Origin: a virus
Length of the DNA stretch: 8,485 nt
Direction: 5' to 3' (one strand)
Virus genome (UHGV): UHGV-0302546
Below, one piece after another: positions 451 to 6,790 of the stretch. The notes beneath the pieces are model-generated. The model saw only the letters and a program-made list of their open reading frames with translations. It was not told the origin of the DNA and did no database searches. The translations under genes and the position numbers were made by a program. Every line of letters begins with the position of its first letter. The first letter of the stretch is position 1.

Positions 451-633
451 ATGAAAAGAAAGGCAATAGCAATTACAGAATCAACATATCTGGATATTAC
501 TAGGATAGCCCTTGAGATAAGCCAAAAAACAGGGCAAATAGTTACATGGTCGGAAGTTGTACACTTTATGATAAAAAACTACTTAAACGACGCAAAACAA
601 GACATGATCCACCAAAGAAACCAAAAAAAATAA
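451..633 (+). CDS. Small (60 aa) putative ribbon-helix-helix DNA-binding protein (candidate phage repressor)
   Basis: ATG at 451 with GGAG at 439..442 (8-nt spacer). Sequence shows a predicted N-terminal beta-strand (AIAITE), helix, K-T-G turn, then helix TWSEVVHFMIKNYL, the RHH (Arc/CopG/MetJ-like) pattern. Paralogous to the 705..917 ORF. Confidence 0.6.
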   Translation: MKRKAIAITESTYLDITRIALEISQKTGQIVTWSEVVHFMIKNYLNDAKQDMIHQRNQKK

Positions 634-684
634 CATAGTAGTTACCTATCGATACGAAGATTCCTAAGAAGCAATATATTGACA
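619..684 (+). repeat. Direct repeat copy A (about 60 bp) spanning the stop codon of ORF 451..633
   Basis: taacatagtagttacctatcgatacgaagattcctaagaagcaatat (631..677) matches 1160..1205 at about 90%, with an identical 21-bp core agttacctatcgatacgaagatt... Contains the 8-bp palindrome TATCGATA. The preceding A-rich stretch is also shared. Confidence 0.7.
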
Positions 685-704
685 GGACATAGAGGTAAAC
701 TGTG

Positions 705-917
705 ATGAAAAAAGAAACAAAGCGCGGAGACACAACTGTAAGAATCAACGAAGACAGAAAATTGGAGCTAAAACGAAGAGTGCTAGAAATCGGCAATAAG
801 ACCGGTGAGATACTAAAACCATCTGAAATAGTTAATCACTTAATAGACAATTACTTAGATGAGGCCGTGAAAGATTTAATAAGCAGAGAAGAACTTAAGA
901 AAAAAAGAGCAATGTGA
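705..917 (+). CDS. Small (70 aa) putative ribbon-helix-helix DNA-binding protein, paralog of ORF 451..633
   Basis: ATG at 705 (GTG at 702 also in frame) with AGAGG at 691..695. TVRINEDRKLELKRRVLEIGNKTGEILKPSEIVNHLIDNYL aligns with ISQKTGQIVTWSEVVHFMIKNYL of ORF1 (about 15/26 identical in the helix-turn-helix B segment). Confidence 0.6.
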   Translation: MKKETKRGDTTVRINEDRKLELKRRVLEIGNKTGEILKPSEIVNHLIDNYLDEAVKDLISREELKKKRAM

Positions 918-973
918 TTCCTTTCCCGGCATCGAACAGACGGGCTGACAAAGATCAAACAGAGGTAGTAAAA

Positions 974-1162
974 ATGCCAACAAAGCACATAAACGATGTT
1001 TTATGGAGAAAGGTAGAGAAAGAAACTGTAAAAGTGGTAACAACACTGGCAATACCAGTAAAAGATACCAAAGTTTTAGAATGGATAATCGCAAAAGGAC
1101 TGGAGTCTATAACAGAAGATGACTACAGGAAATTTGCAAAGACGGATGCAACAAAAAAATAA
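974..1162 (+). CDS. Small (62 aa) protein, possibly a third divergent RHH-like paralog
   Basis: ATG at 974 with AGAGG at 961..965 (8-nt spacer). The tracked start at 914 is a GTG overlapping the previous stop and is less likely. Ends in ..KK-stop followed by repeat copy B, exactly as ORF1 ends before copy A. RHH-like pattern (..IPVKDTKVLEWIIAKGL) is weak. Confidence 0.45.
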   Translation: MPTKHINDVLWRKVEKETVKVVTTLAIPVKDTKVLEWIIAKGLESITEDDYRKFAKTDATKK

Positions 1163-1212
1163 CATTATAGTTACCTATCGATACGAAGATTGCTAGAAGC
1201 AATATGCAGACA
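1149..1212 (+). repeat. Direct repeat copy B (about 60 bp) spanning the stop codon of ORF 974..1162
   Basis: taacattatagttacctatcgatacgaagattgctagaagcaatat (1160..1205) matches copy A; the two diverge after ..agaagcaatat. Confidence 0.7.
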
Positions 1213-1359
1213 ACCAGTGACTTAATTCTTGACCTGCTGATAAAGCATTTTGTTGTTGGCAGCATCACAGGCATGACAATATTCAGCCTGATAACGCTTG
1301 TCCCACCGTTGGTGATGACCATACACAACAAACTAAGTAAGGACACTGAAATCCTTTAA
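1204..1359 (+). CDS. Possible small (51 aa) hydrophobic membrane peptide; could be non-coding
   Basis: ATG at 1204 created at the 3' edge of repeat copy B, open to TAA at 1357..1359. Translation MQTTSDLILDLLIKHFVVGSITGMTIFSLITLVPPLVMTIHNKLSKDTEIL has one predicted TM segment. Only a weak SD (GAAG, 4-nt spacer). Below the 60-aa cut-off of the ORF track. Confidence 0.2.
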   Translation: MQTTSDLILDLLIKHFVVGSITGMTIFSLITLVPPLVMTIHNKLSKDTEIL

Positions 1360-1511: not shown

Positions 1512-2759
<1,248 letters not shown>

Positions 2760-2911: not shown

Positions 2912-4482
<1,571 letters not shown>

Positions 4483-4484
4483 TA

Positions 4485-5747
4485 TTACCCCCTGTCAACA
4501 AAAAGAACACGACGAACAATAAAATAACAACGCAAAGTCGTTAATGCATAAAGAGCATACTCTAATAAAGGCCTGATAATGTCATCATAAACTGAAGCAA
4601 AATCAGATGTGTCAATTGTAAAATACAACCCATTTATTCCCGGAAATTCAATCTGAACTGGCTGAGCACCAGAACGACGCAGTTCACCAGTTAAAAGTAA
4701 TTTATCAAAATTAATATAAAGCCACTCATCAGGAAGAAGGCTGAAAAGCCTGTCAGCAAATGAAGACATATCATCCTGTTCAGGCGTTACAGAATGAATT
4801 AATTCATTTAACTGTGAATCATAAGAACTAACCGCACTGGTAATATCATCCTGAGAAACAGAAAAAGCATTATTTAAATCATTCACTGAAACCCAAATAC
4901 GCTGCAACCAGCCAAGAATATCACCAAGCCAGCCGTCGCCGGAGGAACTGCCACCGCCTGAGCTACCGCCACCGGAACTACCACCACCTGAGCTGCCGCC
5001 GCCTGAGTTACCACCACCGGAACTGCCGCCACCTGAGCTACCACCGCCAGAACTGCCACCACCTGAGCTACCGCCGCCTGAGTTACCACCACCGGAACTG
5101 CCACCACCTGAGCTACCGCCATCCTCCTTATCATCGGAGAATGCAGGATCTACAGCAACTGGTTTCCAGTTGGCAGTACAAACCGTATCATCATCGGGAT
5201 TACAAATAAAAGGATTGCCGGTTGCCTCATAAATACACCCCTGCACATTAACATAACGGGTCCCGTCATCACCTTTATAAACACCAGGAAAAGTCATACC
5301 ATCAAGAACCGGACGAGAAAGACAAATCTCGTCAGTTGGCGGCTTATTATATTCAGGTGTCAAATCCCCCTCACCACCCTGAAAATCAAGAGTGCAGGTT
5401 TCCCACTCTCGCTTCTCTAAATCCCAGACTTTATATGCGGACCACCGGGCATGGACAAAAACCCCAACGGTGGAAGGCGCGCTAGACGGGGCTGATAGCT
5501 TACTACCGCAATAATGAATTATTCCGGAGCACGCGTCGTAACCACCGGAACCACAAAAAATATGACCAGCACCCCTGGCTAATTTAATCGATGCTCCCGC
5601 ATCTGAATAAGCTGTTCTGCAGGATAAACGGCCAAAACACTGAACAAGCTTATCCGGATCTTCTTTCTCCTCAGCAAAAGAAAGCGAAGAAAAGAACAAA
5701 AACAGAAGCGGAATAATAAAACGAATCAAGCAAAACACTCCTGGCAT
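4485..5747 (-). CDS. gIII: pIII-like adsorption (minor coat) protein, 420 aa
   Basis: Signal peptide MPGVFCLIRFIIPLLFLFFSSLSFA, then a Cys-rich N-terminal region. Segment RYVNVQGCIYEATGNPFICNPDDDTVCTANWKPVAV resembles the recalled M13 N1 (TolA-binding) domain RYANYEGCLWNATGVVVCTGDETQCYGTWVPIGL. Followed by a (GGGSS)n linker and a C-terminal membrane-anchor domain similar to the M13 pIII C-terminus. Confidence 0.85.
   Translation of the reverse strand: MPGVFCLIRFIIPLLFLFFSSLSFAEEKEDPDKLVQCFGRLSCRTAYSDAGASIKLARGAGHIFCGSGGYDACSGIIHYCGSKLSAPSSAPSTVGVFVHARWSAYKVWDLEKREWETCTLDFQGGEGDLTPEYNKPPTDEICLSRPVLDGMTFPGVYKGDDGTRYVNVQGCIYEATGNPFICNPDDDTVCTANWKPVAVDPAFSDDKEDGGSSGGGSSGGGNSGGGSSGGGSSGGGSSGGGSSGGGNSGGGSSGGGSSGGGSSGGGSSSGDGWLGDILGWLQRIWVSVNDLNNAFSVSQDDITSAVSSYDSQLNELIHSVTPEQDDMSSFADRLFSLLPDEWLYINFDKLLLTGELRRSGAQPVQIEFPGINGLYFTIDTSDFASVYDDIIRPLLEYALYALTTLRCYFIVRRVLFVDRG
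4938..5120 (-). repeat. Tandem 15-bp (GGGSS/GGGNS) repeats, about 12 units, including a duplicated 75-bp higher-order unit, inside gIII
   Basis: Plus strand shows repeated ccacctgagctaccg-type 15-mers; the stretch gccgcctgagttaccaccaccggaactgcc occurs twice 75 bp apart. Encodes the Gly/Ser linker of pIII. Confidence 0.85.
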
Positions 5748-5789: not shown

Positions 5790-6050
<261 letters not shown>

Positions 6051-6364: not shown

Positions 6365-6790
6365 TCAGCCTTTTTCTTTACCTGCGGGCAGTGCACCCAG
6401 CGGCTGACCGTCAAAACGTTTCATGGAGCCGGAAATAAAACGATACCAGACACCATGACGTTCAGAGCCTGTCGACCATGAGTTAACATCAACCGTGAGA
6501 TAAACAGGTTTGCCCTGCAAATCAGGACATGAATTAAAAAATTTAAAATCCTCCTCAGTACAGGAAAATCGCTCATGCTCCTCACGGCGGACTTTTAATT
6601 TTCGGTCCTCATACGGATAGCCAATAACAATGGCATATTTGGGTTTAGCCTCAGGGTTATAATGAGAACCCGTGGGTTTTAACTCCTCATCATTTATGAC
6701 AGTGGCGTGAATAAAAAATCCCGCCATTGTCATACCTGCAGTAAAACCCTCAGGGGAAGGAAACGGAAAACTGTCGTAAATTTGATTCAT
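6365..6790 (-). CDS. 141-aa protein in the gene V position (candidate ssDNA-binding protein; function unproven)
   Basis: ATG at 6790 with GAGGAG 8 nt upstream. Immediately follows the replication gene and precedes the small coat genes. No recognisable motif; larger than Ff pV (87 aa). Confidence 0.5.
   Translation of the reverse strand: MNQIYDSFPFPSPEGFTAGMTMAGFFIHATVINDEELKPTGSHYNPEAKPKYAIVIGYPYEDRKLKVRREEHERFSCTEEDFKFFNSCPDLQGKPVYLTVDVNSWSTGSERHGVWYRFISGSMKRFDGQPLGALPAGKEKG

Follow-up and report, generated by a model that had tools for sequence, protein, structure and literature searches.

Three probable RstR-class repressor genes, two of them apparently without operators in cis, in the inovirus genome UHGV-0302546

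Immunity of the CTXφ type decides which filamentous phages (inoviruses), toxin-carrying ones included, enter or replicate in a lysogen, and it has so far been described as one repressor allele, RstR, per element. In CTXφ there is one rstR gene per element, and different alleles come together only as separate prophages in an array. Here we describe the UHGV virus genome UHGV-0302546 (8,485 nt; this whole stretch of DNA is called the window below), in which three small open reading frames (ORFs), ORF1, ORF2 and ORF3, very probably encode RstR-class repressors within a single 8.5-kb genome, with ORF2 and ORF3, in contrast to the CTXφ arrangement, lacking operators in cis.

The RstR^ET and RstR^class proteins are presumably helix-turn-helix proteins unrelated to ORF1–3, and RstR^calc was reportedly named as a novel repressor in the title of a 1999 paper by Davis et al. 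The rstR alleles fall into two size classes, 333–354 bp and 180–204 bp, and for the classic ones, RstR^ET and RstR^class, the length is about 112 aa (PMC11509585). Using lux reporters, the tested alleles, including Calc, 5 and 6, were found to repress their own ig-2 promoter more than heterotypic ones (PMC11509585). The same general plan as in the window, with XerCD/dif integration in tandem arrays, is seen in YpfΦ of Yersinia pestis and CUS-1 of E. coli K1. In YpfΦ, the RstR homolog YPO2273 lies next to the replication gene and is followed by two small ORFs of unknown function, which were called unrelated and had no database homologs (PMC4266046). Heteroimmunity of tailed phages, i.e., lambdoid imm and the Cluster A mycobacteriophages (PMC6550527), is likewise set by repressor–operator specificity, with recombination shuffling the modules. 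However, tailed temperate phages normally carry one cognate repressor, and retained orphan repressors of rival type are not their described architecture. A literature search gave no report of an inovirus with several stacked repressors among the matches listed.

RstR-related genes opposite the replication gene

The genes in question and the control region from which they are read are as follows.

451–633, plus strand: ORF1, 60 aa; GGAG 8 nt 5' of the ATG; match to phrog_2503 (E 5.6e-27)
705–917, plus strand: ORF2, 70 aa; alternative GTG start at 702; match to phrog_2503 (E about 1e-26)
974–1162, plus strand: ORF3, 62 aa; GAGG 9 nt 5' of the ATG; match to phrog_5219
337–450, no strand: divergent control region, 114 bp between the start of the replication gene (336, minus) and that of ORF1 (451, plus)
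336 down to 1, continuing from 8485 down to 6821, minus strand: replication gene (Rep), P2 gpA type, PF05840; 5' part at 1–336

The module lies between the secretin gene (1512–2750) and the start of the replication gene (336), and its three genes, each preceded by a Shine-Dalgarno sequence, are on the plus strand, opposite to the core genes, all of which are on the minus strand. The coordinates and orientation given in an initial annotation, made from the letters alone, were correct. That annotation also regarded ORF1 and ORF2 as clear paralogs, which their sequences bear out (42% identity over 55 residues, E=5e-15, both in phrog_2503); the quoted K-T-G turn and SE(V/I)V..I.NYL motifs are found in both, and T34/G35 are invariant across the family. 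ORF3 had been suggested to be a divergent third copy. It showed no pairwise similarity to ORF1 or ORF2 and belongs to another family, phrog_5219, so that a pairwise sequence paralogy was rejected, and a first, narrow profile–profile comparison gave a probability of 4.9%. A broader ORF1/2 profile, in contrast, matched ORF3 with 49–68% probability (E 5e-5 to 2e-4) over 47–51 columns, from end to end and in register with the predicted secondary structure, suggesting that a distant common origin is possible and leaving the third-copy proposal standing in this weaker sense.

The location of the module, likened in the initial annotation to that of RstR, turned out to reflect true homology. A distant DNA search matched window positions 719–881, within ORF2, to the rstR gene in pre-CTX and CTX records of V. 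cholerae. At the protein level, ORF2 is 66% identical (E 3e-26) and ORF1 29% identical (E 4e-10) to the pre-CTX/CTX "environmental" RstR, the allele of V. cholerae strains 17449, VC106 and IB1617. For ORF3 the link is to RstR^calc: the published rstR^calc forward primer (PMC11509585) encodes MATKHIKD, which is the N-terminal signature of ORF3-family proteins, and matches two viral contigs, on which the gene encodes 59 aa and is divergent from rstA. The RstR^calc protein, taken from the gene bounded by the published primers, matched the hidden Markov model (HMM) of the ORF3 family at 1e-29 and is 44% identical to ORF3 (E 4e-17). By sequence, ORF3 is a member of the RstR^calc family. The primer-encoded termini of rstR6 (MKKKYTSLRVS... 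and ...TDLKR followed by a stop) suggest by themselves that this allele belongs to the ORF1/2 family; neither primer-derived pattern was found in the viral contigs, and rstR6 was thus not placed in that family.

Comparison with orthologs indicates that ORF1, ORF2 and ORF3 are real, intact genes, as the changes are mostly synonymous: 16 synonymous and 2 non-synonymous for ORF1 against its ortholog in locus L008, ratios of 9:1 and 15:5 for ORF2, and 3 to 0 for ORF3 between two stacked contexts, with ORF3 DNA 100% identical to one solo copy. An identical ORF1 protein is encoded on 383 contigs. Gene calls treat it unevenly: ORF1 was left unannotated by RefSeq/PGAP in strain AST205 (L003, NZ_AP043614.1, 537–719 and 9115–9297) and skipped in several gene-call sets (L094–L098), and the same 60-aa protein was annotated in strain 2015C-4136CT1 (WP_021559714.1, L004). 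The cis-acting repressor of the phage is therefore often absent from annotations. An unannotated coding stretch of the ORF1/2 family was also observed in Escherichia phage If1 (NC_001954.1 / U02303.1, 5143–5292, minus strand), in what is recorded as the "major intergenic region"; it was matched by tblastn with the CTX environmental RstR (44% identity, 78% of the query, E 2e-5).

Candidate operators in the window and repressors in related phages

Elsewhere, members of both families occupy the Rep-divergent slot alone, each with its own operator region (op), in the same position as the short RstR alleles of CTXφ and pre-CTXφ. ORF1 stands alone behind opA in type A phages (loci L004, L080, L081 and L085–88), and ORF3 alone behind opC in type C phages (L007, L010, L089, L093 and L096) and in 69 viral loci of ORF3 type. 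An ORF2-like gene stands alone behind opB, opposite an RstA-type Rep, in E. coli (E24377A, L006, and L102–107), the solo occurrences of the ORF2 type amounting overall to L006, L101–L111 and the CTX locus L001. Type B phages (L005, L090–92) carry a double, ORF2'–ORF3, behind opB. In L099 and L100 the slot is taken by two further ORF1/2-family alleles (E 5e-25 and 8e-18), and each allele has repeats of its own. Orthologs of ORF2 and ORF3 are divergent from Rep in L005, L006, L001, L007, L127 and the 94 surveyed loci; in the window, ORF2 and ORF3 themselves are not so placed.

For this survey, 69 viral contigs carrying a member of the ORF3 family were examined, as were 25 other loci carrying a member of the ORF1/2 family. 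In many of these the repressor gene lies about 300 bp from a divergent Rep of gpA or RstA type, and a second member of either family was found within the flanks in 0 of the 94. The tandem set is thus unusual, as the initial annotation had supposed, and the comparison across related inoviruses that it proposed revealed solo, double and triple repressor slots. Of 5,426 complete E. coli genomes, 3 contained the triple module; counting all assemblies there were seven carriers, among which the module is 99–100% identical. From these sequences, the slot in dif-prophages of E. coli is a polymorphic immunity locus, used by the ORF3 family and by at least five alleles of the ORF1/2 family. Different secretin genes beside the triple module were considered as a sign of backbone exchange and rejected, because in a tandem array the next gene is that of the neighbouring prophage.

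ORF2-type repressor–operator units were observed opposite both P2 gpA-type and RstA/Rep_trans-type Reps (L006/E24377A vs. L005, L101 and L105), and the ORF3 family likewise faces both Rep types; the immunity unit therefore moves independently of the replication module. In strain ESC818 (L008, NZ_AP029046.1, 4419–4985), a DUF2726-domain gene and another small ORF lie behind an ORF1-like repressor, at the place of ORF2 and ORF3 in the window, and this position seems to accept cargo genes in general.

The control region of the window contains two clusters of tandem 8-bp TGTTAAnn/TGTTAACA boxes at 361–384 and 413–436 (repeats D2, I1 and I5), which in type A read TGTTAAAG TGTTAACA GGTTAACA and TGTTGTCT TGTTAAAC TGTTAACA. 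The GTTAAC repeats pointed out earlier at 361–437 are present and enriched: TGTTAACA with at most one mismatch was matched 10 times vs. 3.6 expected, no shuffle reaching 10, and exact copies occur only at 369–376 and 429–436. The whole region is identical in the solo type A phage L004, and the module of L008, which is 83% identical, has retained its GTTAAC boxes. These clusters are candidate ORF1 operators, overlapping both promoters, and the promoter of the replication gene is the presumed target of ORF1.

An 8-bp period is also the strongest lag in the autocorrelation of the control regions of type A (z +2.4 in the window, +3.6 in L008), type D (+5.1) and type E (+2.6). The type C region gave z +2.8 at lag 7 and +2.4 at lag 8, and of three type B regions one showed a lag-8 signal and two showed none, so this periodicity is not universal. 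It was not found in the other spacers of the window. The clearest tandem layout was seen in a type D region (L099, 2103–2237), with up to nine consecutive 8-bp RTGCAMWW units (the lag-8 z of +5.1), reminiscent of MetJ metboxes.

The other two repressor types are preceded by elements of their own. TTCTAAG/CTTAGAA occurs upstream of ORF3-family genes in 58 of 60 distinct regions, the TCTAAG core having a density of 2.62 per 250 nt vs. 0.09 and 0.02 in control stretches. TTCTAAG is also present in the ig-2 region of V. cholerae rstR^calc, and its conservation fits the invariant N-terminal strand of the ORF3 family. Upstream of ORF2-type genes, 11 of the 13 distinct regions have kept TGTAAATACGCATGCG, the range running from E. 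coli through Xenorhabdus and Arsenophonus to V. cholerae, with CGCATG occurring 2.69 times vs. 0.08 in the control. The operator motifs of V. cholerae and E. coli are therefore alike, ORF2 going with a GCATGCG-type motif and both ORF3 and RstR^calc with TTCTAAG, and TTCTAAG boxes (RstR^calc/ORF3 family) and TGTAAATACGCATGCG (ORF2 type) can be proposed as consensus operators. Neither is represented in the window: TTCTAAG is absent from both strands, CGCATGCG is absent, and the ORF2 cognate element GTAAATACGCATGCG was not found at up to 3 mismatches, nor was either long element (ORF2 type or ORF3 type) at the same tolerance. Thus ORF2 and ORF3 are orphan repressors in this genome.

Because each gene occurs solo with its own operator type elsewhere and only ORF1-type operators are present in the window, we favour, with moderate confidence, the reading that the module is a stack of three RstR-class immunity repressors, acting in cis for its own phage type and in trans against two rival types. 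ORF1, as a predicted dimer of dimers, would bind the two GTTAAC clusters, shutting down the Rep promoter and regulating its own expression, which would parallel the action of RstR at ig-2 of CTXφ. ORF2 (environmental or DTTVRI type) and ORF3 (RstR^calc type) would be made from the transcript of the ORF1 promoter. In trans, ORF2 would repress Rep promoters of type B phages with either gpA-type or RstA-type backbones, and ORF3 those of type C/RstR^calc-type phages, the targets being co-resident or incoming inoviruses that compete for the same dif site. To this trans action of ORF2 and ORF3 we give an even chance. The outcome would be triple-specificity superinfection immunity for the lysogen and one-sided dominance of the phage over its rivals in tandem arrays.

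The same occurrences bear on a different explanation, namely that ORF2, ORF3 or both serve to modulate ORF1 or the genes of the phage itself as an anti-repressor in the manner of RstR/RstC, as a co-repressor or by forming a heterodimer. Such an internal circuit would suit three small proteins that share a predicted fold class and probably an operon, and ribbon-helix-helix (RHH) proteins dimerise, so that mixed ORF1–ORF2 oligomers are conceivable. However, each protein occurs solo with conserved operators of its own in many phages and so needs no partner, and type A phages work with ORF1 alone. An RstC-type antirepressor was rejected, since no similarity to RstC of RS1 was detected by BLASTP at E up to 100 and RstC gave E 0.1 (−1.3 bits) against the ORF1/2 HMM and no match to the ORF3 HMM. 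We regard the internal circuit as improbable. Among the functional options listed in the initial annotation, stacked immunity is thus the one favoured; the repressor/anti-repressor pair and the antitoxin, to which we return with the fold, were not supported.

Origin and expression of the stack

The joints of the module are marked by the following features.

624–676, no strand: R1, first copy of a 53-nt direct repeat (D1/D4), 93% identity and 529-nt spacing to R2
677–941, plus strand: ORF2 cassette, comprising a ribosome-binding site, ORF2 and 24 nt of native downstream sequence
1153–1205, no strand: R2, second 53-nt copy, in its native place after the last repressor gene and running into the tail common to types A, B and C

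In a three-way alignment, the window is the same as type A over Rep, ORF1 and the following 53 nt (R1). In phages of types A, B and C, the R1 sequence normally stands behind the last repressor gene; here it ends at an illegitimate joint with the ORF2 cassette. Over exactly 677–941, the window is 88.7–89.8% identical in DNA to E24377A-type phages and 95% identical to L005, and the cassette has neither its native operator/promoter region nor the native terminator present in E24377A. From 957 the window consists of ORF3 and the common tail (R2, ORF4 and attP), identical to the solo type C phage L007. The ORF2–ORF3 joint is already present in type B. This mosaic bore out the separate acquisition that had been suspected from base composition, and its simplest history, from these alignments, would be nested replacement, from C to B (ORF2+ORF3) and then to the triple. 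At each step, the Rep-proximal operator would have been swapped for a foreign operator–repressor unit, with the older repressor and its ribosome-binding site kept.

In terms of expression, a sigma-70 consensus scan found 3 sites vs. 3.1 expected, which is uninformative, and promoter positions were therefore not assigned. Neither of the spacers, 634–704 and 918–973, has a terminator-like site or folds significantly as RNA (z −1.8 and +0.2, respectively), and the first strong hairpin downstream of ORF1 is at 1390–1428. With no terminator or significant hairpin between the ORFs, a single ORF1–ORF2–ORF3 transcript is the simplest expectation, and ORF2 and ORF3 are probably co-transcribed behind ORF1.

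A recombination joint of this kind could also be a neutral scar, in which ORF2 and ORF3 are passengers of an operator–repressor swap that are useless to the phage and intact only because the event is recent. The rarity of the triple (3 of 5,426 genomes, stacking in 0 of 94 loci elsewhere) and its near-identity in all carriers are in line with this view, as are the lack of promoters or operators belonging to ORF2 and ORF3, the flanking 53-nt repeats, which are typical of a recombination joint, and the identity of ORF3 DNA to a solo copy, which leaves no time for decay. However, two nested events were both joined just 5' of an intact ribosome-binding site, with complete downstream repressor genes kept, and read-through is permitted because the ORF2 cassette came without its native terminator. 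In addition, the double (ORF2'+ORF3) has survived in several assemblies, as has the triple, and both also occur in tandem; the pair has been retained although recombination between R1 and R2 would remove it easily. We consider the neutral scar unlikely, if the most serious of the competing explanations.

Several of these points weigh against stacked immunity itself. In the sigma-70 scan no promoter could be recognised for ORF2 or ORF3 themselves, so that their expression is assumed, and the triple module, being rare and 99–100% identical in all seven carriers, could be young and neutral. The 53-nt repeats would let the ORF2–ORF3 pair be deleted easily. The divergence between orthologs may stem from solo contexts, and the excess of synonymous changes is therefore no proof of constraint within the stack. 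Finally, the role of the RstR homolog of YpfΦ was stated to be untested (PMC4266046).

In a more far-reaching reading, the nested history would amount to "repressor hoarding" as a weapon against competitors, in which the old repressor is kept at each escape from a resident immunity, leaving a phage that makes three specificities from one operon and is insensitive to type B and C repressors yet silences those rivals. The MPTKHI recognition strand and the TTCTAAG box of the ORF3 family vary hardly at all between genera, so that ORF3 could then be active very widely against RstR^calc-type inoviruses. We put this forward tentatively.

Predicted fold, genome setting and implications

AlphaFold models of the ORF2 and ORF3 monomers were built from family alignments, with predicted local distance difference test (pLDDT) scores of 85.4 and 86.4, respectively. 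The ORF2 model has an extended N-terminus, a helix at 17–34, a turn at the invariant T-G and a helix at 40–70, and the ORF3 model has the nearly invariant extended N-terminus MPTKHI, helices at 8–25 and 31–45, and an extra C-terminal helix at 48–61. No strand was assigned by DSSP in these monomer models, as expected if the strand pairs only in the dimer. The top structural matches of both models were RHH DNA binders, at modest scores, and the predicted strand–helix–helix order would be that of the MetJ/Arc/CopG repressors. MetJ dimers bind tandem 8-bp metboxes cooperatively, and the candidate operators in the window are likewise tandem 8-bp boxes. However, the module proteins have no sequence-profile match to a Pfam RHH family. 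No Pfam-A match at E up to 1 and no NCBIfam or PADLOC match was obtained for ORF1–ORF4, curated RHH families included, and PDB sequence searches with both family profiles returned chance-level matches only. An RHH-type fold is the best-supported reading for the module proteins, albeit from modest scores and monomer models, and the short RstR alleles, RstR^calc included, appear from these models to be RHH-type proteins. A literature search on both terms found no paper linking RstR to this fold.

The structural neighbours include the RHH antitoxins MazE4/6/7/9, Rv0298 and TacA, which bears on the suggestion that the module is a toxin–antitoxin or addiction cassette with at least one RHH protein as antitoxin. 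The likeness is confined to the DNA-binding RHH domain of these antitoxins, and ORF1–3 are all of the DNA-binding fold class. No toxin-like ORF was found in 337–1511, the hydrophobic ORF4 product being a weakly constrained peptide that is also found in single-repressor phages, and each of the three genes occurs solo next to Rep elsewhere. This reading was rejected, as there is neither a toxin candidate nor a match to a defence or toxin–antitoxin model in PADLOC, NCBIfam or Pfam, and we judge it highly improbable.

The remainder of the genome is arranged as follows.

1204–1359, plus strand: ORF4, 51 aa, hydrophobic; frame open in types A, B and C; weakly constrained
1363–1460, no strand: hairpin at the right module boundary, 98 nt, imperfect, with nested inverted repeats I3, I6 and I4 and dif-like outer arms
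1512–2750, minus strand: secretin gene
2912–4123, minus strand: Zot/pI gene
4126–4482, minus strand: pVI-like gene
4485–5747, minus strand: pIII-like gene, 420-aa protein
5790–6050, minus strand: coat gene
6365–6790, minus strand: gene for a 141-aa protein

Minus-strand translation from 336 through the window junction gives an uninterrupted protein of 666 aa, and this single frame across the junction indicates that the window is a closed circle and a complete 8,485-nt inovirus genome. A PF05840 (Phage_GPA) domain was found in the replication gene product in identical loci; the window Rep is thus of P2 gpA type, whereas the Rep of CTXφ is of RstA type. No near match to the whole window was found by megablast in the GenBank phage collection. 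The window backbone matched 287 records from 272 of the 5,426 complete E. coli genomes, where it forms tandem copies adjoining hipBA, at the dif locus. In GCA_964038295, two tandem prophages are 100% identical to the window over the pieces compared.

The AT-richness attributed to the module was confirmed: GC content is 0.35–0.38 across 301–1350 and 0.42–0.58 in most of the genome, but positions 4051–4950 (g6 and the start of g3) are equally AT-rich, so that this composition is not unique to the module. A local GC peak of 0.53–0.57 was observed at 4880–5140, where the minus strand encodes the 420-aa pIII-like protein and, within it, a long series of SSGGG/NSGGG repeats. A glycine-rich linker, of which this series is an example, is a usual feature of inovirus adsorption proteins.

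The outer arms of the hairpin at 1363–1460 are similar to the half of E. coli dif that XerC binds (AGTGCGCACAATG / CATTATGCGCACT), and the hipA-side prophage–chromosome junction lies at one such arm. As minus-strand single-stranded DNA the hairpin folds with −40.2 kcal/mol (z −9.3), and its core at 1390–1428 is a perfect 14-bp G+C-rich stem (RNA fold −31.5 kcal/mol, z −6.4). From its sequence, the hairpin is a probable folded single-stranded attP in the style of CTXφ, and its core would double as a bidirectional terminator between the repressor module and the secretin gene. An Rfam scan of 1–1600 gave far sub-threshold matches only, which were due to this long hairpin. ORF4 is a doubtful gene: the window and L004 differ in it by 5 synonymous and 12 non-synonymous changes, and it matched no Pfam, PHROG, NCBIfam or PADLOC family. 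In L080 (2744–2917), one gene caller gives a 57-aa minus-strand gene in this region instead.

RstR-class immunity genes of CTX-like inoviruses are known; the apparent novelty lies in one cognate and two orphan repressors within a single genome, in placing the short RstR alleles in an RHH-type fold, and in operator consensus sequences that hold across each family. The alleles in the slot could serve to type dif-prophages and to predict cross-immunity. If true, stacked immunity in this inovirus would illustrate, in compact and natural form, how immunity can be asymmetric and multi-specific and how its modules evolve by nested replacement.

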